A stretch of 64,000 nt of DNA from an uncultured Pseudomonadales bacterium (GCA_964422035.1 CAYQZQ010000001.1:441013-505012); one strand, 5' to 3'. Shown: positions 964-41,754, counted from the stretch's first letter. Made by a program: numbers and translations. Notes: generated by a model not told the origin, from the letters alone.

Positions 964-964
964 A

Positions 965-1360
965 TTAGCGATTTAAACAAGTAATTGTTAACTGCAAAAT
1001 AGTCGCAAAACTAACCCACAACAAATATGGAATTTGAATATACGTAATCCATTTTGCATGAGGATAAATTGCAAGCATCGCCCAAATAAGTGTCCCTAAG
1101 ACAAAAATAATATCAATTGCAGCCAGGAAATTGTTTCTTAACCCAAATTGCAAAGGAGTAAAAGCAAAGTTAAAAATAAGATTAAGGATAAAAGGAAGAG
1201 CAATGATAAAGGCAATTCGTTTTTGTAAAGTTAATTGAAATACTTTAAAAAAAGAGACAGCAATAAAAACATATAGAAAAGTCCATACTGGGCCAAAAAG
1301 CCAAGATGGTGGAGACCATGATGGTCTAATTAATTGTTGGTACCATCCACTACTTTGCAT
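965..1360 (-). CDS. tspO: TspO/MBR family tryptophan-rich sensory protein
   Basis: N-terminus WYQQLIRPSWSPPSWLFGPVWTFLY is the hallmark TspO opening motif. About 5 TM helices, 131 aa. Confidence 0.8.
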   Translation of the reverse strand: MQSSGWYQQLIRPSWSPPSWLFGPVWTFLYVFIAVSFFKVFQLTLQKRIAFIIALPFILNLIFNFAFTPLQFGLRNNFLAAIDIIFVLGTLIWAMLAIYPHAKWITYIQIPYLLWVSFATILQLTITCLNR

Positions 1361-1521: not shown

Positions 1522-2190
1522 TTATTCGCGTATAGCAGAAGTACTCAAATGGCTCACTAACATGTGTATTACGTCTTCTTTGCCTTCTTTATAGTAAAAG
1601 AATGGTGTTCTAAAAGAAGCCATTTTGTTTCCACTGTCATCAACTACAACTACTAAATCATGTTGGGAATAATCAAAATCTTTCCATAAGACTAGCTCCA
1701 AGTCGCTGGTTTTATTAGCTGTCCCTACGTCTTTGGCTGAGATAAATTTAAAATTAGGATACTTTTTAGAAGCTGTTTCTACAGGTAAATTAGTAGTAAT
1801 AACTTGTGAAGTTAAGTCATTGGATGTCACTATTTGATAGTGGCTGGCAGCTAAAGTAGTGGCTGTTGAATCTGCTTGAAGTTTTTGAGTACTATTCTGA
1901 ATTTCCTGTGGACGAGCTTTGCGGCCAATAATGGCTGTATCTACTTTATTAAGTCTCAACAACTGCAATGCTTCTTGAGCAGATCCTACTAAGTTAAATT
2001 TAACCTCTTTTGTTGAATTTAACTTATCCACTATTGGCTGCATAGTGGGACAGTAGGCAACTTGAACTTGTGATTCGGCTGCAGTTTGATGAACAGTTGT
2101 TGGAGGCTGAACTGGTTTCTGACTAATAATTGTTGCAGACAAGCCAACAACGACTAGAACTATTAAGATGACGGTTAATCTGCTTTTCAT
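1522..2190 (-). CDS. Exported hypothetical protein with an N-terminal signal anchor (periplasmic binding-protein-like region)
   Basis: 222-aa ORF with an N-terminal hydrophobic signal/anchor. The single Cys lies in CPTMQP. No confident family assignment. Confidence 0.4.
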   Translation of the reverse strand: MKSRLTVILIVLVVVGLSATIISQKPVQPPTTVHQTAAESQVQVAYCPTMQPIVDKLNSTKEVKFNLVGSAQEALQLLRLNKVDTAIIGRKARPQEIQNSTQKLQADSTATTLAASHYQIVTSNDLTSQVITTNLPVETASKKYPNFKFISAKDVGTANKTSDLELVLWKDFDYSQHDLVVVVDDSGNKMASFRTPFFYYKEGKEDVIHMLVSHLSTSAIRE

Positions 2191-2196
2191 ACAAAA

Positions 2197-2490
2197 TTAG
2201 TCTATCATGGAACCCAATAAACAGCTTTGTAAATCTTTGGGGCTGAAGCCAATTAGCTTGATTTTATGCTCATTAACAAAAGATGAGAGCTCTTTTGCTA
2301 GAGACCGAAGATCCTTGTTTTGTAAAAAGTTTTCAATATCTGTAATTGCAGTTTCTGGATGAATGAAAAAATCACCAGTAATTTGAATCGATTCAATGAC
2401 GTAATTGTCCAGTTCTACCTTGAGTCGTAGCATTTTGCCACCTGGAACTTTATAGTTAATTTTTTGCATAATTACCTCCAGTAAGTCCAC
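2197..2490 (-). CDS. Lipoate-protein ligase C-terminal (accessory) domain protein, LplB-like; copy 1
   Basis: 97 aa carrying the motifs KVPGGKMLRLKVELDNYVIESIQITGDFFIHPE and LIGFSPKDL. It is the paralog of ORF 8432..8761 (KVPNGKMLRIRYD..IKIFGDFFIHPEE). Typical of a split LplA C-terminal domain encoded just downstream of the catalytic domain. Confidence 0.75.
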   Translation of the reverse strand: MDLLEVIMQKINYKVPGGKMLRLKVELDNYVIESIQITGDFFIHPETAITDIENFLQNKDLRSLAKELSSFVNEHKIKLIGFSPKDLQSCLLGSMID

Positions 2491-3239
2491 TCTTGAGTTG
2501 TATATTTTTCATTTTTAAGTTTTTTGGCCATCTTTTTCTCATTTGCGCTAGCAGTCTCTGATTTTAAATTAGCCTTAAAAGTAGTGCAAAAACCAGCTTG
2601 AATCGCTTGTTGTAAATTCGAGAAAGTGATATCAGGTAAATGGGTTTGAATGGTGCCGACTCGATCTTCGATTTTTTTTATATTTTTATCAGAAATTTTT
2701 TCAATGGGAATCTTCAGATACTTGACCATTTTATTTACATCAAAATCCAGCAACAGAGTTCCGTGCTGGAGTACGGTTCTGTTTTTCCTGGTTTGAGCAT
2801 TACCTGAAATCTTTTTTCCTTTAAGAGTAATGTCATTGATGCCAGATATGATTGCGTTTAAACCAAGCTGTTGTAAGCCTTCTATAATGCCTTGCTGGAT
2901 GACATGATAAGAATCTTGAATATCAGCCGGGATCATGGGGTGAGATTCTTTGATAATCAAGCTGTAGTTTAACTCCCCTTTGGGATCCTTATAAACAGCG
3001 CCTCCTCCGGTCATGCGCCGGAAAATAGCTACTTTATCCTGTTGGCAGTTATCAAGGTTCACTTCCTGGGCAATAGCTTGGAAATAACCGATTGACACAG
3101 CTGGCTGGTTCCAGCGATAAAAGCGCAACGTGGGTGGAGCTTGGTCTTGGCTGACTGCCCCTAAAACTGCTTCATCCACTGCCATGTGATGGTAGTAATC
3201 ACTGACCTCGTCAGTTGGCAGTAGTCGCCAAGATTTCAT
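2472..3239 (-). CDS. lplA: Lipoate-protein ligase A catalytic domain (split LplA-N); copy 1
   Basis: LRFYRWNQPAVSIGYFQ, RRMTGGGAVYKD and KISGNAQTR are characteristic BPL/LPL catalytic-domain motifs. 255 aa. Confidence 0.85.
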   Translation of the reverse strand: MKSWRLLPTDEVSDYYHHMAVDEAVLGAVSQDQAPPTLRFYRWNQPAVSIGYFQAIAQEVNLDNCQQDKVAIFRRMTGGGAVYKDPKGELNYSLIIKESHPMIPADIQDSYHVIQQGIIEGLQQLGLNAIISGINDITLKGKKISGNAQTRKNRTVLQHGTLLLDFDVNKMVKYLKIPIEKISDKNIKKIEDRVGTIQTHLPDITFSNLQQAIQAGFCTTFKANLKSETASANEKKMAKKLKNEKYTTQEWTYWR

Positions 3240-3241
3240 GC

Positions 3242-4009
3242 TTAAGACTTTTTAACTTCCCTGACTAATAAGTCGGTTAGTGGATGGTCGGGATTAAGAT
3301 CAGACACAGGCATTTGTGTAATAGCCGGTGGATATTTTAGTTCCATTTCTTCTAGTCTAGTGAGTGACTTTTCCAGATCTGGGGGGTTAAAGCCCAACCA
3401 TAACTCATCATCTTGCGAGTTGGCAATACTGCGAGCACCTCCACAAGGGATGGTCATCCAGGGCGATTCGCCTTTAATCACAGCTGCCACAATTTCGCAG
3501 GCTGCATGGCCGTTGAAACTAGATTTAGGCTTATTGCCAGTAGCGTCAAAATAGCCCATTAAGGCTAGGTAACTTTGACAGGAATTAACTAGCAAAATTA
3601 TGGCTTCTGGTTCAAGATCTAGTCGATCAAACTCTTTAAGCGGAGCAAAAACAGCTGCTTCATACTCATTTTGAGGTAAAGCTTCGATTTGTTTTGACAA
3701 TTGCTCAAACCTTTTGGGAGTATAAGCAAAGCCTTTCACCCAGCGATCTTTTAAATCTTCCGGAGGCATAGCAAAACCCATCACATAAGTCCCAACCGTG
3801 CAGGCGTCAATGTTCTCGGTATAGACACCTCTAGTTTTTTCATAAACCGCTACTGTTTTTAATAACTGACACAAAGCACGATTGTTAGCTAAAGGCATGA
3901 TTTCTTTTTCTTTTATCATGTCTTTTGATTTAAGCAGCTTGATTCCGATCGGAGCTCCTTGTGGGCTAAGTAGTTTTTTTGATTTTTCTTGCAGTTGAGT
4001 CAAGTTCAT
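3242..4009 (-). CDS. DUF169-family protein
   Basis: 255-aa soluble protein whose composition and motifs resemble the DUF169 / COG2043 family. It is embedded between the GcvH-like and LplA genes. Confidence 0.55.
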   Translation of the reverse strand: MNLTQLQEKSKKLLSPQGAPIGIKLLKSKDMIKEKEIMPLANNRALCQLLKTVAVYEKTRGVYTENIDACTVGTYVMGFAMPPEDLKDRWVKGFAYTPKRFEQLSKQIEALPQNEYEAAVFAPLKEFDRLDLEPEAIILLVNSCQSYLALMGYFDATGNKPKSSFNGHAACEIVAAVIKGESPWMTIPCGGARSIANSQDDELWLGFNPPDLEKSLTRLEEMELKYPPAITQMPVSDLNPDHPLTDLLVREVKKS

Positions 4010-4032
4010 TTTTTTCCTTGTTAATTTTTAAT

Positions 4033-4419
4033 CTAGGCTTGTTTGCTTTTATCTTGACTCTTTAACAGCTCTTCTTTTTCATTGGGTGCGGTCAGCTCTA
4101 GCTTAGCGATCCAGCCCTTGCCATAGGGATCCTGATTAATTAGTGAAGGCTGATCAAACACTTTTTGATTAACCTCGATTACTTTACCCGAAAGCGGGCT
4201 GGCTAAATGTCCGCTCCATTTGAGTGCTTCTAATGATACATAATTATCTCCCTTTTTTAGTGACTGCCCCTCTTTAGGTAATTTCACAAAAACAAACTCT
4301 TTGACTTTGTCAGCGGCTGGTTTGATTACACCCAAGGTGGCTGTTTTTCCTTGAATATCGACCCAGGTATAATTTGAGTCGTAAAGGAATTTTTCTGGTA
4401 AATTTTCGTTGTTGGTCAT
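4033..4419 (-). CDS. Glycine-cleavage H-protein-like lipoyl carrier (orphan GcvH / LbpA-like)
   Basis: 128 aa with H-protein architecture. The candidate lipoyl-lysine sits in the SLEALKWSGHLASPLSGKVIEVN hairpin region (compare canonical ESVKAASD..SG.V). No gcvT or gcvP is present in the window. Confidence 0.8.
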   Translation of the reverse strand: MTNNENLPEKFLYDSNYTWVDIQGKTATLGVIKPAADKVKEFVFVKLPKEGQSLKKGDNYVSLEALKWSGHLASPLSGKVIEVNQKVFDQPSLINQDPYGKGWIAKLELTAPNEKEELLKSQDKSKQA

Positions 4420-4437
4420 AAGTTGTTTTCAGTAAAT

Positions 4438-5925
4438 TTAATTGTTAATTTGATTTTTTTCTTCTGATTCTTCTTGTTCGACAGTTAGATCTTGGGCTTC
4501 ATTGCCAATCTGAATACCAAATACGGGCAAAATTTTCTTGTGGATAAGGTAAACGACCCCAGTAATGCCAAAAGCTATGCCAAAAACCTTAAACATGCCA
4601 ACTACTTCATTCATTAGTTCTGGTTTTGCTAGCCAAAAATAAGCTAAGGTCAACATAATAATTCCGCCCAGTAGTTTTAAGACACGGCCTTGTTCTTCTT
4701 CAAATTTGCTGGCTTTTAAAGTTAAAAGAATCGTGCCGAAGACAAAGGCTTCGTCCAAAAAGTAAATTAACATATAGAGGGCAAAAAGGGTGGCAAATAA
4801 AACCAAACTAACATTGTTTTCAGACAAAATTGTGGTCCAGATAACTGGAAAGCCGGCAGTGCAAATTAATTCGATAAAAGTGACACCAAAAGCTAAGACA
4901 ATAGTACCAGAAATAAGACCCAGCATTGACTTTTTTTTCATTAACTGGCGAGTATTTTTAAAGATTCCAGGCTTAAAGCGATCAGGAATAGTAAAAGAGA
5001 TACCTTTTTTATACCAAAAGTAGTCTTTAATATTTACTAATCCAAAAATCAAGGCGACTGCAGCCACGGAAAGCTTAATCCATTTCATGTAGCCGATGAT
5101 AGCTAGAGCGTTAAATAAACCTAAAATAAATAGTCCATATACAAGGGTGGCGATTGTAATGAAGGTTAGACCCACAGCAAAAACTTTTTTTCTTGAGCCG
5201 GTATGCAGAACAATACCCAGTAAAAAAGTAATTACCCACAAAGAACAGGGGTTAAACCCATCAACAAAAGCTATCAAGCTGGTCATAACAATTAACGGCA
5301 TATGATCCAAATTTATCTCTCCTAACAGGGGCAATTTGATTGTATGTGCATTTTGAGTGCTTGAGTCGTTTGTTTCTTGCCCCAAAGAGGTGAAGGGAGC
5401 TTCACTTTTTATATCATTGGCTGTATCAGCGGGCTCACTGGTAATTGTCGGAGCTGTGGTTGGTTCACTACTAGCTTCTTCTTCAACTGATTGATTCTCA
5501 TCTGTAGCTACAATACCGGCTTTGACACCCGGATCAATACAGCCTTCTTGCAGACACGATACAATTTTGTTTTCCATATCATCAGCCATGTACTCAGCAA
5601 AACCAACTATTGGCTCGTAGTCGCCAATAAAGGTAGTAGGAACTCCTCTGGCTTGAATGCCGTAAGCCTCAGCCACCTGTTCAAAGACAGCCATGTTTCC
5701 CTGGTTTTGCCAAGTTTCATAGCTTTTAACCTCTAATTGAGAATACTTTTGTTCCATTTCCTCTAGAAAAGGCTTTTCAACTACGCAGTGAGGACAGCCC
5801 TCTCCCCAGAAAAAGTAGACCGTAGTTTTTTCTGCAGCTAAAGCTGGTTGGGCTAAGAATAATAGACAAATAAAGGTAATGACTGCTAGAAAAACTTTCT
5901 TCATATGTTCACTATAACTGATCAA
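4438..5925 (-). CDS. Fusion protein: N-terminal exported thioredoxin-fold domain (CPHC) plus C-terminal CcdA/DsbD-like multi-TM thiol-disulfide transporter domain
   Basis: Signal/anchor, then YFFWGEGCPHCVVEKPFL...GVPTTFIG (thioredoxin fold). An acidic S/T-rich linker follows. Then about 8 TM helices, with a Cys in the FVDGFNPCSLWV membrane segment. Confidence 0.65.
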   Translation of the reverse strand: MISYSEHMKKVFLAVITFICLLFLAQPALAAEKTTVYFFWGEGCPHCVVEKPFLEEMEQKYSQLEVKSYETWQNQGNMAVFEQVAEAYGIQARGVPTTFIGDYEPIVGFAEYMADDMENKIVSCLQEGCIDPGVKAGIVATDENQSVEEEASSEPTTAPTITSEPADTANDIKSEAPFTSLGQETNDSSTQNAHTIKLPLLGEINLDHMPLIVMTSLIAFVDGFNPCSLWVITFLLGIVLHTGSRKKVFAVGLTFITIATLVYGLFILGLFNALAIIGYMKWIKLSVAAVALIFGLVNIKDYFWYKKGISFTIPDRFKPGIFKNTRQLMKKKSMLGLISGTIVLAFGVTFIELICTAGFPVIWTTILSENNVSLVLFATLFALYMLIYFLDEAFVFGTILLTLKASKFEEEQGRVLKLLGGIIMLTLAYFWLAKPELMNEVVGMFKVFGIAFGITGVVYLIHKKILPVFGIQIGNEAQDLTVEQEESEEKNQINN

Positions 5926-5936
5926 TGTTATGGAAG

Positions 5937-5981
5937 TATTTTACCAATATTAAGGGAATGTTAAGATTTGACAAATAAGTT
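5937..5981. promoter_or_regulatory. Conserved ~45-nt motif, copy 1 (TATTTTaCCAATaTTAAGGGAaTGTTAAG..TTGAcaACAAaT), in the divergent promoter region between the thioredoxin-CcdA operon and padR
   Basis: Near-identical to 13357..13401 (about 38 of 45 nt match). Contains the direct repeat TGTTAAG-N4-TGTTAAG (first half-site degenerate in this copy: TaTTAAG). Lies 12 to 56 nt upstream of the minus-strand start at 5925 and overlaps the 5' end of padR. Confidence 0.45.
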
Positions 5982-6392
5982 TATATATGTAACGATGTTA
6001 TGTATGAAAGACAAAATAAGTTGTGAGCCCAAAGGCAGATATCCGGAAAAACGCTGGGTCCAGTTTTTAATTTTAAGAGTTCTTTATGAAAAACCCTCTT
6101 ACGGATACAAAATCGTTGAATCAATTGAAAAGTTAACTGAGGGCAGACATCAAATTAAGCTTGGTTCTATCTATACCTTACCTTATTGCGTCGCATGGAG
6201 AAGCGTGAGCTGTTAACCTCTCAGTGGAAAGAAAGTAAAAAGAATCCGGACAAGAAAATCTACCAAGTTACGAAAAAGGGAGAAGATCTTTTAAAGCAGT
6301 GGTTGGAGGTTGTGATTGAAAGAAGAAAAATGATGACCAAAATGGTCGAATTTTATAAAAAACATTTTAAGGAGGAAGCCAATGAAAATTGA
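5968..6392 (+). pseudogene. PadR-family transcriptional regulator interrupted by a frameshift near 6180 (authentic frameshift or sequencing error)
   Basis: Frame-1 ORF ends ..GYKIVESIEKLTEGRHQIKLGSIYTL then runs out of frame. The frame-3 ORF continues LRRMEKRELLTSQWKESKKNPDKKIYQVTKKGEDLL. Joined, they give the canonical PadR wHTH pattern (G.LY.LL.RLEK.GLL.S.W......R.YY.LT..G). Confidence 0.6.
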
Positions 6393-6687
6393 CAACATCT
6401 TATCTTTGCAAAATTTTTCTAAAAAAGGACCGGTTAAAACCGATATTATAAAATCTAACAAGTTTAACGTGGTGACGGTTTGTCTTGAGGAGAACCAAGC
6501 AATACCGCCCCATCCCGAGCCTTATGCAGTTTTCTTTTTGGTACTGAAAGGCAAGGGTGTATTTACTAAAGGCAAGGAAAATTTTGAACTTGAACAAGGC
6601 TCAGAACTTTTTGTTGAAAATAACGAACTAAGAGGGATTAAAGCTTTAGAAAAGTTGATTATTTTAGGGATTCAAGATGGACATTAA
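6382..6687 (+). CDS. Cupin-domain protein
   Basis: 101 aa with a two-His cupin-like core (PPHPEPYAVFFLVLKGKG...ELFVENNE). Strong SD (AAGGAGG) upstream. Confidence 0.55.
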   Translation: MKIDNILSLQNFSKKGPVKTDIIKSNKFNVVTVCLEENQAIPPHPEPYAVFFLVLKGKGVFTKGKENFELEQGSELFVENNELRGIKALEKLIILGIQDGH

Positions 6688-7624
6688 TCAACAAAACACA
6701 AAAGCGATCGAGGTAATTGAGCTTAGTAAAAAATTTAGACAACTAACAGCTGTTGACGATATTTCTTTTGAGGTCAAAAAGGGAGAGGTCTTTGGATTTT
6801 TGGGCCCTAATGGCGCCGGTAAGACAACCACTGTAAGAGTGTTAACCGGATTGACTAAGCCAACCGAAGGTCAGGCAAAAATTTTTGATCATGATATTGA
6901 AAAAACAGATATCGAAGCTAAAAAATTAATTGGTATGGTGCCTGAAACATCTAATGTATACGATGAATTATCGGCTTGGGAGAATCTGATTTTTACGGCC
7001 GATCTTTATCAGCTGAAAAAAAGTCAAGCTGAGAAAAGAGCCCAAGATTTACTCAAAACCTTTGAGCTTGTTAAGCGCCAAGATGACAAAGTTAAGGGTT
7101 TTTCCAAGGGCATGAAAAGAAGGCTAACTCTGGCCATGGGTTTGATCAATAGTCCGCAATTATTGTTTTTAGATGAGCCAACTTCGGGCTTGGATGTGGA
7201 GAGTTCGCTTATTATCAAGGAGATGATTAAAAATTTAAGCCAACAACAGATCACTATTTTTCTCACAACCCATGACATTAAAGAAGCCAGTAGAAGTTGT
7301 GATCGGGTGGCTATTATTAATCATGGCAAAATTGCTGCGATTGATACCCCGGAGAAATTAAAAACAACCATTGAGAGTGTCCAGTCGATTGAAGTAGTTT
7401 TTAATCAGACGGTCTCTTTGACTAAAATAAGTTCTTTGAAAAAACATGATTTTATCAATCAAGTTCAAAAAAAGGCAGACAAGTATAAATTATTTACTGA
7501 TAAGCCAGAAAGAGCTTTAAAAAAGCTGTGGGATTTTAGTTTAACAAACAAGTTAAAAATCACCAGTCTAAACACTCTCGGTCCTGATTTAGAAGAAGTT
7601 TTTATCAAATTAACCAAAAAATGA
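6677..7624 (+). CDS. ABC transporter ATP-binding protein (ABC-2 exporter type)
   Basis: Walker A GPNGAGKTTT, ABC signature FSKGMKRRLTLA, Walker B LLFLDEPTSGLD. Confidence 0.9.
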   Translation: MDINQQNTKAIEVIELSKKFRQLTAVDDISFEVKKGEVFGFLGPNGAGKTTTVRVLTGLTKPTEGQAKIFDHDIEKTDIEAKKLIGMVPETSNVYDELSAWENLIFTADLYQLKKSQAEKRAQDLLKTFELVKRQDDKVKGFSKGMKRRLTLAMGLINSPQLLFLDEPTSGLDVESSLIIKEMIKNLSQQQITIFLTTHDIKEASRSCDRVAIINHGKIAAIDTPEKLKTTIESVQSIEVVFNQTVSLTKISSLKKHDFINQVQKKADKYKLFTDKPERALKKLWDFSLTNKLKITSLNTLGPDLEEVFIKLTKK

Positions 7625-8367
7625 TGAATAAGAATCTCACCAACAACCTGAGAGCGGCTTGGTCAATTACCAAAAAGGATATCATGATTTACTATTTGAA
7701 ACCTGGAACCTTGATGTTTGGTGTTATGTTTCCTTTGTTTATGTTTCTTTCTTTTGCTGTTGGCAGAAATGTGCCGACCTCATCTTTAATTCCAGGTTTA
7801 ATTTCTCTGACAGTCTTATTTTCGGCTTCATCGATTGGACCAGTGGCGATTCCAGTAGAAAGAAGGGTTAAAACTTTTGAAAGGCTGATCGCTGCTCCGA
7901 TATCTTTTTATGCTGTTATTTTGGGAAAAGCTTTAGGGGGAGTTCTGTTTAGCGTAGCTATTAGCTTAATCGCTTTATTGGCAGCTTGGTTGTTTCTGGG
8001 AGTAATTTTGTTTAGTCCAGCCACCTTACTCTTTGCCTTAATTTTTGCTTCATTATGCTTTTCTTTGCTGGGAATCATGTTTGCTATGTTTCCTACGGAA
8101 AATCCAGGAAACATTATGATCATGCTTAATTTTATCCGTATGCCGCTAATGTTTATTAGTGGAATTTTTATCCCAATCAAAACGCTGCCTTTATGGGCAC
8201 AAACAATCTCTTACTTTTCACCTCTAACTTATGCTAATGATTTGTTTGGTTTTGGAATTGAAGGCAAAATTAATTTAGGTTTGTTTACCAACCTGATGGC
8301 TCTACTGCTTTTTGCCGGCGTTTTTCTTTTTGTTGGTCTTCGATTGGACAAGAAATTTAGGGAATAG
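7621..8367 (+). CDS. ABC-2 family transporter permease
   Basis: 248 aa with 6 TM helices. Translationally coupled (ATGA overlap) to the ATPase. Confidence 0.75.
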   Translation: MMNKNLTNNLRAAWSITKKDIMIYYLKPGTLMFGVMFPLFMFLSFAVGRNVPTSSLIPGLISLTVLFSASSIGPVAIPVERRVKTFERLIAAPISFYAVILGKALGGVLFSVAISLIALLAAWLFLGVILFSPATLLFALIFASLCFSLLGIMFAMFPTENPGNIMIMLNFIRMPLMFISGIFIPIKTLPLWAQTISYFSPLTYANDLFGFGIEGKINLGLFTNLMALLLFAGVFLFVGLRLDKKFRE

Positions 8368-8431
8368 TCTTTAGTCAAACATTAAAAGACAAAAAGATTA
8401 GTCAAGACACATCAAGTCATCAAGATTTACC

Positions 8432-8761
8432 TTAAATAAGTGCATTTTCTATATCAATTGGGGTAAAACCAATCAAGGTTATGTTTTTTTTATCAACAAA
8501 CTTAGTTAAGTTTTTAGCTACTTGATTGATTTTCTTGCCAATTAAAAACTGCTCTATGTCTAAAATTGACTCTTCCGGGTGTATAAAAAAATCACCGAAA
8601 ATTTTAATGTTCACGATAGTATCGTCATTAGAGTCATATCTGATTCTAAGCATCTTCCCATTTGGAACTTTATAGACTATATTTTTTTTCATAAAGCTAT
8701 TTCTAACGCCAATAATTCCATTTATCGCTTGTATATTTTTCTTTGTATAATTTTTCGGCAT
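8432..8761 (-). CDS. Lipoate-protein ligase C-terminal (accessory) domain protein; copy 2
   Basis: Paralog of 2197..2490: KVPNGKMLRIRYDSNDDTIVNIKIFGDFFIHPEE...LIGFTPIDI. Confidence 0.75.
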   Translation of the reverse strand: MPKNYTKKNIQAINGIIGVRNSFMKKNIVYKVPNGKMLRIRYDSNDDTIVNIKIFGDFFIHPEESILDIEQFLIGKKINQVAKNLTKFVDKKNITLIGFTPIDIENALI

Positions 8762-9512
8762 GCTTTAATTCTTCAAAAGTCAGTTCTTTAACTTCAGTTT
8801 TTATATTAAACTTTTTTTCAAAACCATAAATAAGCGCCTTTTCTATTTCTTTATTTGCAATGTTTTTTCCTAACTCGTTTTTTAACGAGGTTACTCGCTC
8901 TTTGGCCGTTTTTATCATTTTATCTTTAATTTTTTCGTCAGGGACATTTAGCACGGAAAACATTTTTTCAAGATCCAGATCCAAAAGTATCGTTCCGTGC
9001 TGTAAGACCACGCCTGACTGTCTGGTTTGGGCATTACCGGATATTTTTTTATTACCGACAATAATATCATTTATGGGTTTGAATTCCGCTTTTATGCCAA
9101 GAGAAAGTAGGGCTTCAACTATAGCACCGCAGATTTCTTTGTAAGATCCAACTATATCAGAAGAAACATCTTTTTCAGAAATGGTGAGAGAATAAGTTAG
9201 TTCATGTTCATGTAAAACTGCGCCTCCGCCAGTATACCTTCTAACTACGTCTATATTTTTAGACTGAGCCTTGATAAGATCTATTTCATCTTCCAGATTT
9301 TGAAAAAAACCAATTGTTACACAGGATGGTTGCCACTTAAAAAATCGCAGAGTGTTTGGAACTGTACCTTTTATGCGCGCTGTAAGAATGGCTTCATCAT
9401 TAGCCATCTGTTTTGCACCGCTGTCCGCAGTTGTTTTTATAAGTCTCCAGGTGTTCATATTTTTATTTACACATAGTGTCAGCTTGATACGAGCTCCTAA
9501 CCAAAGGTCCAA
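8703..9512 (-). CDS. lplA: Lipoate-protein ligase A catalytic domain; copy 2
   Basis: LRFFKWQPSCVTIGFFQ, RRYTGGGAVLHEHE, KISGNAQTR. Overlaps the 3' end of lipA. Confidence 0.85.
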   Translation of the reverse strand: MDLWLGARIKLTLCVNKNMNTWRLIKTTADSGAKQMANDEAILTARIKGTVPNTLRFFKWQPSCVTIGFFQNLEDEIDLIKAQSKNIDVVRRYTGGGAVLHEHELTYSLTISEKDVSSDIVGSYKEICGAIVEALLSLGIKAEFKPINDIIVGNKKISGNAQTRQSGVVLQHGTILLDLDLEKMFSVLNVPDEKIKDKMIKTAKERVTSLKNELGKNIANKEIEKALIYGFEKKFNIKTEVKELTFEELKHAEKLYKEKYTSDKWNYWR

Positions 9513-10308
9513 CTGAAATTTGTTTGATGCCTATTTTTTTGGCAATCGCCCTAATTTTTTTAAACTCTTCTGGTTTATAATATTTCTTTACCGAAAAATG
9601 TACTGAGCTTGGCTGTAAATACTGACCTATTGTGACTATATCACAACTGCTTTTTTTCAAATCCGTAAGTGTTTCAATTATTTGCTCATTTGTTTCACCT
9701 AAACCAAGCATGATGCCGGATTTGATTTTTATTCTCGGCTCAAATTCTTTTGTTTTTCTTAGAAGTTCTAGAGACAATCTGTAATCACCTCTAGGTCTTA
9801 CTAGGGTAAAAACATCTTCAACAGCCTCTAAGTTATGGTTAATCACATCAGGTCCGGATTTTATGATCTTTTGAAGCGCTGTCCAATTACCGTTTAGATC
9901 AGAGATTAACACTTCAATTGTACAACTTGGATTTATTTTTTTTATCGCCTTGATTGTTTTTATAAATTGGTCAGCGCCACTGTCTGCCAAATCATCTCTG
10001 GTAACGCAGGTTATCACCACATAATCCAACTTCATCTTTTCAGTAGCAATAGCAATCCTTTTTGGTTCTTGGGCATCAACAGTTTTTGGCCAACCTGTTT
10101 TGATATTACAGTAACGACAATTTCTGGTACAAACGTCACCTAAAATCATAAAAGTAGCTGTGCCGGCAGCAAAACATTCATAACGGTTGGGACAATTTGC
10201 TTCCAGACAAACCGTAGTTAGTTTATATTCATTTATAATATCTAAAGTCTTCAGATATGCTTTTTTATCGCATTGCTTAATTTTAATCCAATTGGGCAAG
10301 TTATCCAT
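9463..10308 (-). CDS. lipA: Lipoyl synthase (radical SAM)
   Basis: Auxiliary cluster CLEANCPNRYEC and radical-SAM cluster CTRNCRYC. 281 aa. Confidence 0.9.
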   Translation of the reverse strand: MDNLPNWIKIKQCDKKAYLKTLDIINEYKLTTVCLEANCPNRYECFAAGTATFMILGDVCTRNCRYCNIKTGWPKTVDAQEPKRIAIATEKMKLDYVVITCVTRDDLADSGADQFIKTIKAIKKINPSCTIEVLISDLNGNWTALQKIIKSGPDVINHNLEAVEDVFTLVRPRGDYRLSLELLRKTKEFEPRIKIKSGIMLGLGETNEQIIETLTDLKKSSCDIVTIGQYLQPSSVHFSVKKYYKPEEFKKIRAIAKKIGIKQISVGPLVRSSYQADTMCK

Positions 10309-10309
10309 A

Positions 10310-10585
10310 TTAAGAAAAAACAGTATTTTGCTCTATTAAAGTGATCAAATCTGCATAAGAGATAAGTTTAACACCGGCCTTATTATCAACCCCTCTTAAT
10401 TTTAGGTCTTGATCTATGACTGAAATACTTGCACCCTTTTCTTTAATTGCGCCAATAAGATTATTTTTAGGATTATGACAAACTAAAACGCCATCTTGAA
10501 TTAAAACGGTAATATCCCCCTTTTTAATAAAGCGCAATATTTGCTTGTGCCGACTGAGATCGTTTGATTTGATAATAAATAACAT
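10310..10585 (-). CDS. TusB/DsrH-family sulfur-relay protein
   Basis: 91 aa with DsrH-like topology. It is third in a tusD-tusC-tusB-like gene order. Confidence 0.6.
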   Translation of the reverse strand: MLFIIKSNDLSRHKQILRFIKKGDITVLIQDGVLVCHNPKNNLIGAIKEKGASISVIDQDLKLRGVDNKAGVKLISYADLITLIEQNTVFS

Positions 10586-10591
10586 ATGTGT

Positions 10592-10972
10592 TTAAAAATT
10601 AATTATTACACCCACTCCTCTGACGAGTTTGTTTATCTCTTTGTCAGCTAAAATTTCAACCTGTTGGATTTCCTGTATTTGAATGTTCCTCTCAGTTAAG
10701 CTGTTGGCATCGGCTGCAACTTTCAAACCAAATTCGGTAGCATTGGCAAAACCTTCTTTTAAGCTTCCCGCCCCAATTAGATCAGGATTTTGTTTTTTTA
10801 GCAGGGAAAATACACCATCATCGGAAAAAACTAAGAAAGTATCTAAATCCATTCCGGCAAAAGCAATACCGGCTCTGACAGCCTCAGCCGGGAAAACCGT
10901 GCCAAATGGCGGATTATTAACGATTATTAGTACTTTTTTTGTCATATGTTCATAGATTGATAAATTTGTCAC
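10592..10972 (-). CDS. TusC/DsrF-family sulfur-relay protein (probable true start at M of MTKKVLIIVNN, ~10945)
   Basis: DsrE/DsrF-like fold (VLIIVNNPPFG...) lacking the active-site cysteine, as in TusC/DsrF. Confidence 0.6.
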   Translation of the reverse strand: MTNLSIYEHMTKKVLIIVNNPPFGTVFPAEAVRAGIAFAGMDLDTFLVFSDDGVFSLLKKQNPDLIGAGSLKEGFANATEFGLKVAADANSLTERNIQIQEIQQVEILADKEINKLVRGVGVIINF

Positions 10973-11294
10973 ACTCCTTGACCATGTCAGCCAAACCAGG
11001 CAAACCTTCTAACTCTCCCTGAGGTAAAAGCTGGTCTTTTTTTATCCCACGGAATTGGATACAAACACCGCAAATCTTGATTTCTGCTCCCAAGTCAGCC
11101 AGTTCTGCCATTCTTTGATATAAATTTCTCTCTTTGGCTGAATTGATATCTTTATTGACGGCAATGACACTATCAACATAAAGAAATATTTTCACTTGGT
11201 GTTTTTTAGCTATCGCGGCTTTACTAAGGTAATAAAGCGTGTCAATGTCTTGATATGTGTATGGTGGCTTGGTGACTAATATGCCTAATTTCAT
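10950..11294 (-). CDS. TusD/DsrE-family sulfur-relay protein (active-site Cys present)
   Basis: 114 aa, KLGILVTKPPY N-terminus. The conserved Cys sits in an EIKICGVCIQFRGI context like TusD Cys78 / DsrE. Confidence 0.7.
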   Translation of the reverse strand: MKLGILVTKPPYTYQDIDTLYYLSKAAIAKKHQVKIFLYVDSVIAVNKDINSAKERNLYQRMAELADLGAEIKICGVCIQFRGIKKDQLLPQGELEGLPGLADMVKECDKFINL

Positions 11295-11312
11295 ATTTTA
11301 TTTGTGAATTTA

Positions 11313-12356
11313 TTAATTGTTTTTTATAAACATAAAATAAGCTAATGTCCAACCACCTGAAATGATGAATATACCCGCAAGAATACTGGAGATTGCTAAT
11401 TGAGGCACGCCGCTGAGAATATGTCCTATGTTACAGCCCCCGGCTATTATCGCACCAAAACCCATTAAGGATCCTCCGGCCAGAGATTGTAATCCAACTT
11501 TAGCTTTTGGCAAACGAATTTTAAATTCATTACCCAATTTAGAGCCAATGAATGAACCTGCAACTAGACCAATAACTTGGAATGATTCCCATGTTAAAAA
11601 GTTCTTTCTTTGTAAAATTGATTTAAGAATTGTTTCAAAGCCTGTGGTTATTCCCAAGGGATAATTACGCCCGGATAGGGATGAAAAAATAAATGCCAAT
11701 ATACCAATAAAGCCAATTGCAAGTCCGGTTAGTTTCCACGACCAACCCATGTTAAAAAGTTTTCCAGTCCAGTTTATCTTGTTACCCTGCTTCAGCTTAT
11801 TGTCCTGGATGCTAATTCCGCTATCTTTTTTCTTAAGGCCGCAAAATAACAACACAAAAATTATGCCGGCGAAAATTAAAACAAAAAACTCAGCAGGAAT
11901 TCCTGATATCGAACTGAGCGTTAAAGGACCCTTATTTAAAGTTTGAACTCGGGTGACAAAATCGGATAAAAATCCATCTTTGGCTAGATATGCGGCCATA
12001 ATAAATCCAAACAAAGCTATTAAAGAACTGATCATGCCCTCACCAACGCGGTAAGCTGTTCCGCTGGCACATCCTCCTGTTAAGACCATCCCGGCTCCGA
12101 ACATATAGCTACCTAAAGGTATGGCAAGTAGATAAAGAGGCTTGGGATTAAGCTCCACAATGCCAAGAGTGCTTATAATATAAAAACCAAGTAACTGAAC
12201 TACAATCGCTAGTCCTACTGCTTTAAGTAAAGTGAAATCCTTGAATAGGAGTGGATCACGAAAAGCCGAGTTCATGCAAAATCTCCCCCTTTGCAATGCA
12301 AGGCCGAAAAGAAGCCCCACTAATAATCCGCTAATTATGGAGAAGACACTAAGCAT
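11313..12356 (-). CDS. YeeE/YedE-family sulfur-compound (thiosulfate-type) transporter
   Basis: Two-repeat membrane protein with the conserved Cys motifs GRFCMNSA, GGCASGTAY and AGGCNIGHILSG. Confidence 0.8.
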   Translation of the reverse strand: MLSVFSIISGLLVGLLFGLALQRGRFCMNSAFRDPLLFKDFTLLKAVGLAIVVQLLGFYIISTLGIVELNPKPLYLLAIPLGSYMFGAGMVLTGGCASGTAYRVGEGMISSLIALFGFIMAAYLAKDGFLSDFVTRVQTLNKGPLTLSSISGIPAEFFVLIFAGIIFVLLFCGLKKKDSGISIQDNKLKQGNKINWTGKLFNMGWSWKLTGLAIGFIGILAFIFSSLSGRNYPLGITTGFETILKSILQRKNFLTWESFQVIGLVAGSFIGSKLGNEFKIRLPKAKVGLQSLAGGSLMGFGAIIAGGCNIGHILSGVPQLAISSILAGIFIISGGWTLAYFMFIKNN

Positions 12357-12377
12357 ATTTAGATTATTTGATTAGAT

Positions 12378-12953
12378 TTATAGTTTTGATGCCGGATTAA
12401 GGCAGTTGTTCTCCACGCAATAAATGATTTTACTTTCCATGTCGTCGGCCATGGATTCGGCAAAACCGACAATTGGTTCATAATTACCGATGAAAGTAGT
12501 GGGAACTCCTCTGGCTTGAATGCCATAAGCTTGAGCCACCTGCTGAAACAGTTCTAAGTTTTCTTTGTTTTTCCATGTCTCATACATCTTTACCTCTAAC
12601 TCAGGATACTTCTGTTCCATTTCCTCTAAAAAAGGCTTTTCAACTGCACAATGAGGGCAGCCATCTCCCCAAAAAAAGTAGATTACTACAGACTTTTCTG
12701 ACACTTCTTCGCTGTCTTCTATATTTGTATTGCCTTCTTCGTTTTCAACCACTGCTTCCCCTTTTACCGATTGCTTTTCTTCCTCTATTTGAGTGGTAGT
12801 ATTTTCTTCTTCCTGATTTTCAGTGACTGTGTTTTCGAGCGAAGAAATTTCATTGTTAGTGTTTTTATTACTACCGATTGTTTGAGTAAAAAGAAATAGC
12901 CCTAAGCCCAGTGTTAGTACTATTGTCAATATTGATATTTGTTTTTTATTCAT
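12378..12953 (-). CDS. Secreted thioredoxin-fold protein (CPHC); paralog of the N-terminal domain of 4438..5925
   Basis: Signal peptide, an N/E/T-rich low-complexity linker, then IYFFWGDGCPHCAVEKPFLEEMEQKY...GVPTTFIG. About 85% nucleotide identity to 5600..5850 over ~230 nt. Confidence 0.7.
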   Translation of the reverse strand: MNKKQISILTIVLTLGLGLFLFTQTIGSNKNTNNEISSLENTVTENQEEENTTTQIEEEKQSVKGEAVVENEEGNTNIEDSEEVSEKSVVIYFFWGDGCPHCAVEKPFLEEMEQKYPELEVKMYETWKNKENLELFQQVAQAYGIQARGVPTTFIGNYEPIVGFAESMADDMESKIIYCVENNCLNPASKL

Positions 12954-13021
12954 AATTTTACTTTTATTTAGTTTAATTTAATAATAAATGCAGTTGGATG
13001 CGTTGATAGTTAATATTCTAA

Positions 13022-13276
13022 CTACTTAACTTGAATTAGAAGCCGGTGGTCAGGACCGGACTCTATTTTCTCTACTTTAAGCATTTTATGTCCTTCTTTT
13101 TCACAGTTACGCGGGATTCTCTCTAAAGATAAAGGATAATCAGTTAAAACCTCCAATATCTCTCCTGAGCTCATTTTTTTAATTTTTTTTCTTGTTCTTA
13201 TGTCCGGATAAGGACAAATCTCACCTCTGACATCAATGCTCTCTGTTGCCCGAATCTTTTTGTTTTCTTCTGTCAT
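13022..13276 (-). CDS. tusA: TusA-like sulfurtransferase (SirA/YedF/YeeD family)
   Basis: Conserved CPxP motif (IDVRGEICPYPDIRTRKKI). 84 aa. Confidence 0.8.
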   Translation of the reverse strand: MTEENKKIRATESIDVRGEICPYPDIRTRKKIKKMSSGEILEVLTDYPLSLERIPRNCEKEGHKMLKVEKIESGPDHRLLIQVK

Positions 13277-13356
13277 ATAAACTTTCTTTTAGAATTATTT
13301 TGGAAATGTAAAGGTTAATTATGTATCCATATTATAATCAATCAATGTTGTGAGAC

Positions 13357-13401
13357 TATTTTGCCAATGTTAAGGGAGTGTTAAGTTGAGGACAAGTTAA
13401 G
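13357..13401. promoter_or_regulatory. Conserved ~45-nt motif, copy 2, upstream of the tusA-trx-yeeE-tusDCB-lipA-lplAB operon
   Basis: TATTTTgCCAATgTTAAGGGAgTGTTAAGtTGAggACAAgTTAAG. Matches 5937..5981 and lies 80 to 125 nt upstream of the tusA start. Confidence 0.45.
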
Positions 13402-13431: not shown

Positions 13432-14583
13432 TCATTTCAAAGGCAGCCTAACTTTAAAAGTAGTGCCTTTTCCCAACTCACTTTTGACTTGAATTTCTCC
13501 TTTGTGAGCTTTAATAATTTTTTGAACAATGGTTAAACCAATTCCAATTCCCTCATGGCTGCGCGATTTATCGACTTGAAAAAATCTTTCAAAGATTAGA
13601 GGCAGATCTTCTTGTTTAATGCCCATCCCTTCATCGATAACTTTAAAGCACAACTCTTGCTGATCGGATTGATAGGTTTTGAGAGTGATGGTGCTGCCTG
13701 CAGATGAGTACTTAATAGCATTATCTAAAAGATTAGAGATCACCTGCTGTATCTTTTGCTCATCTAATTTAATCTTTGGCAAGTTGGCTTCCAGTTCGAG
13801 CTTTAACTCAATATTTTTATTTTCTAGTTTTTTTTGAAATGATTGGGCTGCTGTCTTGATTAAATCATTAATGTTTGCGTAAGTTTGATTAAGTTTTGGA
13901 TCCTCACTTTCCAGAATAGCTAATTTTTTCAAGTCTTTAATTAGCTGAACAACTCGCTTAGTTTCTTCTTTAATTAATTTAATGGTTTCTCGTTGTTTAT
14001 CTGGCTCACTGATCACGCCGTCTGAGAGTGCTTCTAGATAGCCATATATGTTAGTCAGAGGGGTTGAAAGCTCGTGAGACATGTTGGCAACTAGTTCTTT
14101 ACGCAGAGTTTCAGTTTTTTCTAAGCTTTGATACATCTCATTGAGTGCTTTAATCAACTCGTCTGTTTCATCGTAAGTTTTGGTCTTGATTCGCACTTGA
14201 TAGTTGCCGGTACTAGCCCGTTTGGCTGAAGCGATAATTTTTTGAAAAGGTTTTAAGAAATTGTGGCTAAAAAGATAACCTAACAACAAGGCAATTAATA
14301 AACCAAAAAGGCTAGCAATTAAAAGAGATTGATTAATTGATTGGAGAAACCGCTGCCCGTTTTGGCTGCGCATACACTCAGGTAAGCCGTTTGTTGAAAG
14401 TTCGCAAAACTGCTGAAAGTGTTGGTTAACAGCAAACTTAGTGACTAAAGTCACAAAACCTACCGTAATCACTAAATTGATTACAAAAAGCAAAATAAGC
14501 TTCCATTTTAATCCTAATTTTATTTTCATAAGAACAGATGAGTTAGTCGACCAATTTATAACCAACCCCTTTGATTGTAGCAA
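13432..14583 (-). CDS. Sensor histidine kinase (2 TM, HAMP, HisKA, HATPase_c)
   Basis: H-box MSHELSTPL, N-box LLDNAIKYS, G-boxes DEGMGI and GIGLTIV. Confidence 0.85.
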   Translation of the reverse strand: MLQSKGLVINWSTNSSVLMKIKLGLKWKLILLFVINLVITVGFVTLVTKFAVNQHFQQFCELSTNGLPECMRSQNGQRFLQSINQSLLIASLFGLLIALLLGYLFSHNFLKPFQKIIASAKRASTGNYQVRIKTKTYDETDELIKALNEMYQSLEKTETLRKELVANMSHELSTPLTNIYGYLEALSDGVISEPDKQRETIKLIKEETKRVVQLIKDLKKLAILESEDPKLNQTYANINDLIKTAAQSFQKKLENKNIELKLELEANLPKIKLDEQKIQQVISNLLDNAIKYSSAGSTITLKTYQSDQQELCFKVIDEGMGIKQEDLPLIFERFFQVDKSRSHEGIGIGLTIVQKIIKAHKGEIQVKSELGKGTTFKVRLPLK

Positions 14584-15220
14584 TTAACTCTTGGCTGTGA
14601 TCTTTTAACTTTTTTCTTAAATTTGAAATATGAACATCAATGGTGCGATCATAAACTTCTGCAGCTTCATTGGCATAGACTATATCTAAGAGTTCAGTTC
14701 GTGAATACACTACTCCCGGACGCTTGATCAAGGCTAGTAGCAGATCAAATTCTCTGAGAGTGAGATTAATTTCCTGCCCATCTTGCTTAACTTCAAAGCG
14801 CTGGGGATCAACTTTAAGACTTTTTACTTGGTAAATTTGTGAGTCAATGTCACTTTCTTGGAAACGCCTTAGGACTGTTTTAACTCTAGCCACTAGCTCT
14901 TGGGGGCTAAAGGGTTTAGTCACATAATCATCAGCTCCTAACTCCAAGCCAATGATTTTGTCTGTTTCTTCATCTTTTGAAGATAAGATGATGATAGGAG
15001 TTTTATTGTTTTGACGGATTTTTTTTAAAACAGAGATGCCGTCCTTTTCAGGTATCATTAAATCCAAAATAACAAGGTCTGGCTTTTTGTTTTGAAAAAT
15101 TTCCAACCCACGCAATCCGTCCTGAGCTGTAAAAATTGTAAAGTTTTCTTTTTCAAGATAAAGCTCCAATAGACGAATAATTTTAGACTCATCTTCGATA
15201 ATAAGAATACGTTTATTCAC
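14543..15220 (-). CDS. OmpR-family response regulator
   Basis: Receiver domain (ILIIEDE..DLVILDLMIP) plus a winged-helix trans_reg_C domain (YSRTELLD..VDVHISNLRKKL). Confidence 0.9.
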   Translation of the reverse strand: MNKRILIIEDESKIIRLLELYLEKENFTIFTAQDGLRGLEIFQNKKPDLVILDLMIPEKDGISVLKKIRQNNKTPIIILSSKDEETDKIIGLELGADDYVTKPFSPQELVARVKTVLRRFQESDIDSQIYQVKSLKVDPQRFEVKQDGQEINLTLREFDLLLALIKRPGVVYSRTELLDIVYANEAAEVYDRTIDVHISNLRKKLKDHSQELIATIKGVGYKLVD

Positions 15221-15417
15221 GGTTAATATATTTTACAAATTTAGAATGAATTTAATTAAAAATTACAAATAGAAAAATTTAAAAAGAATAAAAGCGACCA
15301 CTACAGTTAATAAGACAATTGAAGATAAATATTTTTTTACTCATTGTTTTGTTATGCTCGCCTTATTTAATAGTTATTGACTAATGTTTTCTAAATATAA
15401 ATTTTCGTAAATTAGAC

Positions 15418-16581: not shown

Positions 16582-16593
16582 ATTATTCTTTTC

Positions 16594-16854: not shown

Positions 16855-16880
16855 AATATTTTTCTAATTTGTAATAGTAA

Positions 16881-35763: not shown

Positions 35764-35803
35764 TATTAGAGGATAATCTGCATCAATGATATAATTTAAA
35801 AAA

Positions 35804-38169: not shown

Positions 38170-38170
38170 A

Positions 38171-41040: not shown

Positions 41041-41043
41041 AAT

Positions 41044-41748: not shown

Positions 41749-41754
41749 TGTTCA

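Follow-up and report, generated by a model that had tools for sequence, protein, structure and literature searches.

A lipoyl-carrier operon shared by CPR bacteria and DPANN archaea, and its proposed role in thiol redox relay to membrane and sulfur-handling partners

The window examined here (a stretch of 64,000 nucleotides, GCA_964422035.1 CAYQZQ010000001.1:441013-505012, deposited under the name of an uncultured Pseudomonadales bacterium, with positions counted from its first letter) encodes a GcvH-like lipoyl carrier together with lipoylation enzymes, a thioredoxin (Trx)-membrane fusion protein and a set of sulfur-relay proteins of the TusA, YeeE and DsrEFH types. An earlier note, made from the sequence alone, had picked out these genes between 2197 and 13401 and suggested that they form a lipoyl-protein-centred thiol/sulfur trafficking module in what looked like a reduced genome. 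Pfam and NCBIfam profile scans of the window proteins, scored against the model cutoffs, confirm all of the genes so named, on the minus strand and with the coordinates listed below. The cluster reaches further than was proposed, taking in p222 (1522-2190) at one end and a two-component system and an ArsP-Trx3-ArsR set (13432-17195) at the other. The named genes do share one strand, but the run of ~11 kb that they were said to form is broken by four genes on the plus strand (5968-8367). The features are as follows:

16881-17195, minus strand: ArsR-family regulator, the first gene of the extended cluster (PF01022, 53.9 bits)
16594-16854, minus strand: small thioredoxin-like protein of the Thioredoxin_3/MTH895-ArsE type, or Trx3 (PF13192, 63.8 bits; TIGR00412, 56.7 bits, missing the cutoff of 62)
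15418-16581, minus strand: ArsP_1-family permease (PF03773, 223 bits)
13432-15220, minus strand: two-component system (response regulator 14543-15220, histidine kinase 13432-14583)
13022-13276, minus strand: TusA/YeeD-like sulfur carrier with a CPYP motif, Cys21 (PF01206, 77.5 bits)
12378-12953, minus strand: DsbA-like Trx-domain protein, membrane-anchored or secreted (weak Trx, DSBA and Redoxin matches)
11313-12356, minus strand: YeeE/TsuA-type sulfur (thiosulfate) channel (PF04143, 278 bits; NF052577, 282 bits, missing the cutoff of 400)
10950-11294, minus strand: DsrE/TusD-like subunit (PF02635, 83.8 bits)
10592-10972, minus strand: DsrF/TusC-like subunit (PF02635, 46 bits; TIGR03010, 55 bits, under the cutoff)
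10310-10585, minus strand: DsrH/TusB-like subunit (PF04077, 48 bits)
9463-10308, minus strand: canonical lipoyl synthase LipA (NF004019, 389 bits, cutoff 203; TIGR00510, 350 bits, cutoff 310)
8703-9458, minus strand: LplA-N, catalytic subunit of the N2 type, pair 2 (PF21948, 183 bits)
8432-8761, minus strand: LplA-C, C-terminal-domain subunit, pair 2 (PF10437, 27.5 bits)
5968-8367, plus strand: opposite-strand insert, assigned with Pfam (frameshifted PadR 5968-6392, cupin 6382-6687, ABC ATPase 6677-7624, ABC-2 permease 7621-8367)
4438-5904, minus strand: Trx-membrane fusion (signal peptide, extracytoplasmic DsbA-like CPHC domain, low-complexity linker, 7-helix membrane domain)
4033-4419, minus strand: GcvH-like lipoyl carrier (PF01597, 116 bits; TIGR00527, 96 bits, missing the cutoff of 115.85)
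3242-4009, minus strand: DUF169 protein (PF02596, 94 bits)
2472-3239, minus strand: LplA-N, catalytic subunit of the N1 type, pair 1 (PF21948, 194 bits)
2197-2490, minus strand: LplA-C, C-terminal-domain subunit, pair 1 (PF10437, 26 bits)
1522-2190, minus strand: p222, a membrane-anchored extracytoplasmic protein (no Pfam or NCBIfam match)

Gene neighbourhoods were compared across 75 loci with 10-kb flanks (given L numbers), the open reading frames (ORFs) of which were searched using the window proteins and the proteins of two annotated loci from the candidate phyla radiation (CPR); components were counted in the 37 loci that have 6 kb or more of downstream sequence, and adjacency of the fusion and GcvH genes was scored in the 61 loci with upstream sequence. 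One co-directional operon plan recurs in the 75 loci, which span two domains of life: (p220/p222), Trx-membrane fusion, GcvH, free Trx paralogue, a variable module, LipA, LplA-N, LplA-C. The fusion lies immediately upstream of GcvH in 59 of the 61 loci, and LplA-N (33/37), LipA (27/37), the free Trx paralogue (25/37) and the p220/p222 family (21/37) follow in frequency. The variable module may be a CoADR-like flavoprotein (22/37), TusA-YeeE-DsrE-DsrF-DsrH (11/37; the sulfur block) or DUF169 (5/37); when shorter loci are counted, 18 loci, some bacterial and some archaeal, carry the sulfur block within the co-directional operon. Since the same synteny recurs in 75 loci of two domains, the clustering exceeds chance, and the idea that these genes constitute one conserved functional unit around an orphan lipoyl carrier is borne out. 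The window holds a rearranged member of the operon, in that the operon is halved by the opposite-strand insert, both ligase types and DUF169 are present, and the flavoprotein is absent.

All of the carrier's nearest relatives (47-86% identity) belong to Patescibacteria/CPR or to DPANN archaea, and judged by these homologues the source organism is a CPR-type bacterium with a reduced genome, as had been supposed of the genome. Identity between bacterial and archaeal copies is 66-69% for DsrE, 58-62% for YeeE and about 50-57% for GcvH; these high inter-domain values argue for horizontal transfer of the module between episymbionts of the two domains. Many third-party-annotation (TPA) records of metagenome-assembled genomes that carry the operon (L005-L079) are titled 'uncultured Gammaproteobacteria', 'Methanosarcinales', 'Bdellovibrionales' or 'Muribaculaceae', labels that look unreliable given the gene content of these loci and their similarity to properly labelled CPR/DPANN loci.

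The surroundings of the operon are also partly conserved. ArsR-Trx3-ArsP adjoins it in about 25 related loci, a membrane winged helix-turn-helix regulator is a recurrent neighbour in 24 DPANN loci, the window two-component translations match a Pfam-annotated response regulator/histidine kinase pair upstream of the operon in L002, L003, L015 and L027, and cupin and ABC genes adjoin the operon in L010, L019, L025 and L034. Between LipA and LplA-N, eleven loci (L005, L007, L023, L024, L028, L029, L034, L036, L053, L062 and L079; e.g. L036:13004-13471) encode a secreted lipoprotein of ~145 aa, with an invariant CTSGCGGVYPGPY and no Pfam match, which the window lacks. An N-terminally extended 2x[4Fe-4S] ferredoxin of ~120 aa occurs in L002, L010-L012, L019, L023, L025, L028, L029, L062, L075 and L079 (e.g. 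L025:4278-4655), and is enriched near sulfur-block operons (9/16 loci, against 1/35 of the flavoprotein type); because it is usually seated in the ArsR-(cupin-)Trx3-ArsP module and is not encoded in the window, it is kept out of the mechanism proposed below.

Within the carrier clade the motif LEA(L/V)K67WSG is invariant, so conserving the lipoyl-lysine K67, and there is no cysteine column in the 77-sequence alignment. The carrier misses the GcvH equivalog model TIGR00527, whereas the NF002270 subfamily model is narrowly passed (118.2 versus 117 bits). As the earlier note had it, no GcvT, GcvP or E2 is encoded among the window ORFs of at least 280 aa, and neither Lpd nor Hdr is found among them; with GcvT and GcvP absent from this set, ordinary glycine cleavage is ruled out for the window. 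LipA is of the canonical type, scoring just 39 bits with the LipS2 model (cutoff 270), and the split LplA proteins reach 166-178 bits with the LplAB model NF053751 (cutoff 550). LplA-N1 and LplA-N2 of the window share 43% identity. N2-type ligases accompany LipA in 31/31 loci, whereas those of the N1 type do so in 0/8, a partition that suggests an octanoate-plus-LipA route and a lipoate-salvage route, both of which are represented in the window; from this distribution LplA-N1/C1 probably salvage free lipoate.

The protein described as a secreted thioredoxin is Trx-like, but is more exactly a paralogue of the N-terminal domain of the fusion, being 72% identical to fusion residues 24-128 and sharing with them both CPHC and a second C-x4-C pair. 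This free protein, related 'Redoxin' lipoproteins and the N terminus of the fusion make up one family (FFWG(E/D)GCPHC ... GVPTTFIG ... C-x4-C), and the orthologues in L002 and L003 have lipoprotein signal peptides. In the fusion, CPHC is invariant, as are two cysteines, in DGFNPC220 and C348TAGFP, probably located at helix breaks in mid-membrane. A Trx-membrane fusion beside GcvH is real, but the CcdA-like relationship assigned to it has no profile match to support it: DsbD/DsbD_2 models gave no Pfam match to the membrane domain at E<0.1, and hhalign against the true DsbD_2 family from the same loci returned 0.2% probability. The membrane domain may be a putative CcdA-like conduit with two membrane cysteines. 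Homologues of the fusion in quinone-containing bacteria are not adjacent to GcvH. A true DsbD_2 (PF13386) membrane protein, paired with a membrane-anchored HGT(H/N)QC-x-SC protein, lies beside the operon in L009, L011, L013, L015, L022, L023, L029, L059, L062 and L079 (e.g. L011:9502-10215); these loci therefore each encode two distinct two-cysteine membrane proteins. p222 has an invariant cysteine in a CPT motif and weakly resembles periplasmic binding proteins (profile match to the type II binding protein 4zv1, E 1.8e-5).

Conserved cysteines are likewise a feature of the sulfur block. Cys21 of the TusA CPYP motif is kept in 20/20 orthologues, and C27, C96 and C308 of YeeE, corresponding to the three TsuA relay cysteines, are invariant. 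DsrE has invariant C75-G-V-C78 and C108, the CxxC being present in 19/19 orthologues; its first cysteine aligns with the active-site cysteine of TusD/DsrE, and TusD has no CxxC. Neither DsrF nor DsrH retains a conserved cysteine. A CxxC is likewise present in YeeE-linked DsrE proteins of the outgroup, and DsrH adjoins LipA in 12 loci. A search of metagenome contigs with the DsrE alignment for neighbourhoods outside the lipoyl operon gave no confirmed locus, and its repeat with YeeE gave just outgroup YeeE (43-50% identity) in plain TusA-YeeE or YTD-like contexts.

Among the other variable components, the flavoprotein is related to CoADR/Nox/persulfide reductases, with an EYCPCALPY motif and about 300 bits with TIGR03385 (under the cutoff); by its sequence it is of the pyridine-nucleotide disulfide reductase class, and is not Lpd. 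An AhpD/CMD-like CxxC protein (PF02627, 79 bits) is encoded in 8 loci, 7 of them of the flavoprotein type, mostly directly after GcvH. In DUF169, cysteines 47, 70, 171 and 189 are invariant; no solved relative of it was found, and the literature connects it, weakly and by context, with YedE of Slackia and a TauE-like permease of Desulfovibrio.

The reading that we favour, with a probability of about 0.5, is that the region encodes a self-contained lipoyl-protein thiol-redox system typical of CPR and DPANN organisms, in which lipoyl-GcvH would be a cytoplasmic dithiol hub with membrane-relay and sulfur outlets. From the observed gene identities, synteny and conserved cysteines we infer the lipoylation of the carrier, each electron or sulfur transfer and every direction of flow, as follows. 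LplA-N2/C2 would attach octanoate to the carrier, into which LipA would then insert two sulfurs, and the resulting dihydrolipoyl-GcvH would serve as cytoplasmic dithiol donor in the place usually taken by thioredoxin. At the first outlet it would reduce both membrane-embedded cysteines of a CcdA-fold transporter, from which the extracytoplasmic CPHC domain and the free paralogue could hand electrons to cell-surface thiol targets, p222, with its single cysteine, being a candidate. At the second outlet, in this genome, YeeE would import thiosulfate and TusA would take up the sulfane sulfur and pass it, within a DsrEFH complex, to DsrE Cys75; Cys78 would resolve the Cys75 persulfide with release of sulfide, and dihydrolipoyl-GcvH would re-reduce the DsrE disulfide. 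In most relatives the carrier would be recharged by the operon-encoded CoADR-like NAD(P)H flavoprotein. Because this is absent from the window locus, recharging there would have to fall to DUF169, with its four cysteines, or to an unlinked reductase.

A dithiol hub is suggested by the near-universal pairing of the carrier with the membrane protein, and by the NAD(P)H flavoprotein and AhpD-like partners, which parallel the Lpd-DlaT-AhpD-AhpC chain of Mycobacterium tuberculosis. In that chain, and in lipoyl-dependent Ohr peroxidases, protein-bound dihydrolipoyl reportedly acts as thiol reductant and is recharged by an NAD(P)H flavoprotein. The likeness extends to the AhpD-like CxxC protein, which is encoded directly after GcvH in most of the 8 loci that possess it. 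By contrast, the carrier here is a dedicated GcvH-like protein rather than a dehydrogenase E2, the flavoprotein is CoADR/Nox-like rather than Lpd, the window encodes neither AhpD nor an NAD(P)H disulfide reductase, and the main conserved client is a transmembrane relay. That relay resembles the thioredoxin-fed conduits CcdA, DsbD and ScsB in having two membrane cysteines, probably at broken helices, and an extracytoplasmic Trx-fold acceptor domain; it differs in lacking a DsbD/DsbD_2 sequence match, in having seven helices, in the DsbA-type CPHC of its fused domain, and in its genetic linkage to a lipoyl carrier instead of to thioredoxin or cytochrome c maturation.

The AhpD-like and flavoprotein partners point to a general thiol-reductant hub, not to a purely sulfur-trafficking device. 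A conserved lipoyl-carrier module is retained from the earlier proposal of lipoyl-based thiol/sulfur trafficking, but the sulfur block is an optional part of it (~30% of loci) and not its core. The invariant CxxC of DsrE is easier to reconcile with reduction of the relay by the carrier than with sulfur being loaded from the relay onto it. As a client of the hub, the sulfur block would be in line with the thiosulfate reductase activity, dependent on dihydrolipoate, that is classically ascribed to rhodanese. The same role matches the need of YeeD/TsuB for a thiol reductant, solely with which it converts thiosulfate to sulfide and sulfite, the cellular acceptor having been left open (PMC11073785).

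Several observations weigh against the dithiol-hub reading. The best PDB sequence match of the Trx domain is DsbA, and CPHC is an oxidizing motif of the DsbA type; homology of the membrane domain to CcdA/DsbD is without sequence support by Pfam or hhalign; the window locus has no carrier reductase, there being no flavoprotein homologue on the 725,544-bp contig among the best 120 matches; and, 64 kb having been examined, GcvT/P, E2, thioredoxin reductase or DsrC may lie elsewhere in the genome. In the 37 loci, moreover, the flavoprotein and the sulfur block are nearly exclusive (both in 1, sulfur block only in 10, flavoprotein only in 21, neither in 5; Fisher p 8e-5, uncorrected for phylogeny), and the two types interleave at at least 5 places on the GcvH neighbour-joining tree, which suggests repeated swapping of modules that are equivalent rather than complementary. 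Both modules are present in L017 and L034. All but L039 of the 13 informative sulfur-block loci have a ferredoxin, DUF169 or a flavoprotein as possible electron input, which softens the objection from equivalence and does not remove it.

The first alternative, which we regard as unlikely, is that the system runs in the oxidative direction, as a disulfide-forming pathway for quinone-less organisms: the CPHC domains would oxidize secreted proteins, electrons would flow inward through the membrane cysteines to lipoyl-GcvH, and re-oxidation of the carrier would fall either to the flavoprotein, with NAD(P)+ or O2 as acceptor, or to sulfane sulfur/thiosulfate on TusA/DsrEFH, freed as sulfide. The invariance of CPHC and the DsbA match are in keeping with this, as is the second, probably structural, cysteine pair of the Trx domains, implying that extracytoplasmic disulfides are made; interchangeable terminal sinks would also account for the interchange of flavoprotein and sulfur block. 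In canonical lipoyl systems E3 oxidizes dihydrolipoamide, and to our knowledge CPR and DPANN organisms lack quinones, so that DsbB or VKOR routes would be unavailable to them. Inward flow would, however, be uphill unless pulled by O2, since DsbA-type domains are less reducing than lipoamide (about -290 mV), and all characterized CcdA/DsbD-family proteins that we know of are reductive, carrying reducing equivalents outward. Moreover, the AhpD-like partners require a reduced carrier, and the fusion homologues away from GcvH occur in bacteria that do have quinones.

The near-exclusive occupation of the same operon position by flavoprotein and TusA-YeeE-DsrEFH, and their interleaving on the GcvH tree, favour a second, slightly more doubtful, possibility, namely that the sulfur block supplies electrons just as the flavoprotein does, with sulfide taking over from NAD(P)H where habitats are sulfidic. 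The DsrE CxxC disulfide would be attacked by sulfide, the persulfide sulfur would exit via TusA and YeeE, and the electrons would reduce lipoyl-GcvH so as to power the outward relay. The failure to find a flavoprotein for the window genome among those best matches is as expected on this basis, and some authors have proposed that YeeE-family proteins move sulfane sulfur, in a direction that is unsettled (PMC13293266). The characterized YeeE/YeeD system, however, imports thiosulfate (PMC11073785), and H2S needs no transporter; the co-occurrence of both modules in L017 and L034, and the ferredoxin, DUF169 or flavoprotein of the informative sulfur-block loci other than L039, which could be the real electron input, also argue against it.

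In the version first proposed for this locus, which we consider distinctly improbable, the carrier is LbpA-like and TusA/DsrE load sulfane sulfur onto the dihydrolipoyl arm, which would take it to a consumer, e.g. the sacrificial cluster of LipA or Fe-S/thio-cofactor synthesis, or across the membrane. There is precedent for TusA/DsrE3 acting with lipoyl LbpA in the sHdr sulfur-oxidation systems (PMC6067878, PMC11094781), DsrH and LipA are adjacent in 12 loci, and the apparently non-CPR locus L085 joins GcvH, LplA, TusA, DsrE2, DsrEFH and YeeE with Hdr-like and sulfhydrogenase-like subunits. The carrier, however, lacks the two conserved LbpA cysteines, no Hdr-like oxidizing partner was seen among the scanned window ORFs or in the CPR/DPANN loci, the neighbourhood has no conserved enzyme that could accept sulfur, and about 70% of the operons are without the sulfur relay yet keep the carrier, membrane protein and LipA. 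Chance juxtaposition of a glycine-cleavage H protein and lipoate genes with TusABCD for tRNA 2-thiouridine and an unrelated membrane thioredoxin is strongly disfavoured: the narrow pass with NF002270 and the limitation of inspection to 64 kb of genome leave it some room, but the gene order recurs in 75 loci of two domains, the carrier fails the GcvH equivalog, TusD, TusC and TusB are all under their equivalog cutoffs (49, 55 and 46.6 bits versus 89, 94 and 49), tusE, mnmA, gcvT and gcvP are all missing from the scanned window ORFs, and TusD lacks the CxxC of DsrE.

Comparison with known systems helps to place the operon. Among the known systems closest to the hub proposed here is sHdr-LbpA sulfur oxidation (Cao et al. 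2018, PMC6067878; Tanabe et al. 2024, PMC11094781), with which it shares an orphan GcvH-like lipoyl carrier having a conserved lipoyl-lysine and dedicated LplA-type ligases encoded alongside, TusA and DsrE-family sulfurtransferases in the cluster, and use of lipoate outside carbon metabolism. LbpA, however, has two strictly conserved cysteines, N-terminal and C-terminal, that are missing in GcvH (PMC6067878). In the present operon the Trx-membrane fusion is near-universal, whereas it is not known from sHdr loci; the window ligase is a split LplA-N/LplA-C, under the sLpl(AB) model cutoffs; and the hosts are fermentative CPR/DPANN organisms rather than sulfur oxidizers. Consistent with the earlier view that this is not an sHdr locus, no Hdr-type family was found among the scanned window ORFs or among the recurrent unassigned families of the 75 loci. 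Membership of the sHdr-LbpA group is ruled out by the lack of Hdr genes in these sets, the cysteine-free carrier, and the presence of LipA instead of LipS1/LipS2.

The sulfur block itself has the YeeE-TusA-DsrE-DsrF-DsrH synteny, in the window and in 18 loci, of the YTD cluster/DsrEFH type II of sulfate reducers and cable bacteria (Plum-Jensen et al. 2026, PMC13293266), and resembles TsuA/TsuB (YeeE/YeeD) of thiosulfate uptake (Ikei et al. 2024, PMC11073785) in that a PF04143 protein with the three YeeE cysteines, for which transport is predicted, adjoins a TusA with a CPxP cysteine. Unlike the YTD cluster, it is embedded in a lipoyl-carrier operon, its DsrE is found by standard DsrE models and has an invariant CxxC, and its hosts are not known as sulfate reducers or disproportionators. 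DsrC/DsrAB were not seen, with no DsrC-like family recurring among neighbours in the 75 loci, and the absence of TusE/DsrC and MnmA from the scanned window ORFs and the recurrent neighbours agrees with the view that the tus set does not serve tRNA 2-thiouridylation. The GcvH-L/LplA2/SirTM/macrodomain operon of Staphylococcus aureus (PMC4518038, PMC12440151) is similar in combining a second, non-glycine-cleavage GcvH with its own ligase and in its link to redox stress. By contrast, the operon described here has membrane and sulfur relays as partners and no ADP-ribosylation layer, neither a sirtuin nor a macrodomain being found among the window genes or recurrent neighbours.

The apparently non-CPR/DPANN locus noted above (L085:1-10311, metagenome contig Ga0114934_10001563) is an independent lipoyl-sulfur locus, encoding HdrA/MvhD-like proteins, an Fe-S protein, a fused LplA, AsrA/AsrB-like (sulfhydrogenase beta/gamma-like) subunits and a GcvH that passes the equivalog cutoff; its sulfur genes are TusA, DsrE2 and DsrEFH, then TusA-YeeE-DsrEF(H), with CGxC in both DsrE copies. 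This locus suggests that a link between lipoyl carriers and sulfur relays of the YTD type also exists in other lineages.

The carrier and fusion of the window are also recorded in a 725,544-bp NCBI contig and in the Logan assembly of SRR7048227. The PadR gene of the insert (5968-6392, plus strand) is broken into two ORFs, of 82 aa and 68 aa, that overlap and are read in different frames, probably a true frameshift or pseudogene and not an assembly error, because the independent Logan assembly L001 shows the same split. Directly downstream of the cluster (571-1360, minus strand) are genes for a TspO/MBR-family membrane protein and a DUF2177 protein, a pair also present in L001. The remainder of the window is bacterial housekeeping, including Lgt, Lon, aminoacyl-tRNA synthetases, RelA, RecJ and SecDF. 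A run of genes after the Trp/Tyr-type tRNA synthetase gene (34627-43871, plus strand) encodes a family-3 glycosyltransferase-like protein, an AMP-binding enzyme, an aldehyde dehydrogenase/LuxC-like reductase, a second, truncated class-I (W/Y) synthetase-like ORF, a methyltransferase-like ORF (41044-41748), an APH-family kinase and a glycosyltransferase, and may be a small-molecule modification or resistance cluster. Sizeable ORFs without a Pfam match lie at 31785-33683 (plus strand, 632 aa), 46356-47243 (minus strand, 295 aa) and 48627-49691 (plus strand, 354 aa). Promoter and terminator scans gave signal no better than that of shuffled sequence.

Full-text searches, of open-access papers only, found no prior description of the operon, and there is a substantial chance that the coupling of a lipoyl arm to a membrane relay is new in kind. 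More tentatively, and at rather less than even odds, we propose that the lipoylated GcvH-like protein replaces thioredoxin for a new CcdA-fold relay, that it is the missing reductant/acceptor of YeeE/TusA/DsrEFH, and that the whole is a portable CPR-DPANN 'redox island' with swappable modules (flavoprotein, AhpD-like, YeeE/TusA/DsrEFH, DUF169). Lipoate is generally viewed as the cofactor of a few complexes of carbon metabolism, with sHdr sulfur oxidation as one recently added exception; in CPR and DPANN organisms, which are not known to have those complexes, a conserved and fully equipped lipoylation operon therefore calls for a different job. The dithiol-hub reading points to lipoate as a general thiol reductant, a use apparently not previously described. 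If correct, transfer from the lipoyl arm to the membrane relay would be a novel means of driving thiol chemistry outside the cytoplasm in organisms that have neither quinones nor respiratory chains, would supply a candidate cellular partner for the YeeE/YeeD thiosulfate decomposition left open by Ikei et al. (2024), and would give a functional context to DUF169 and to an unannotated membrane family.

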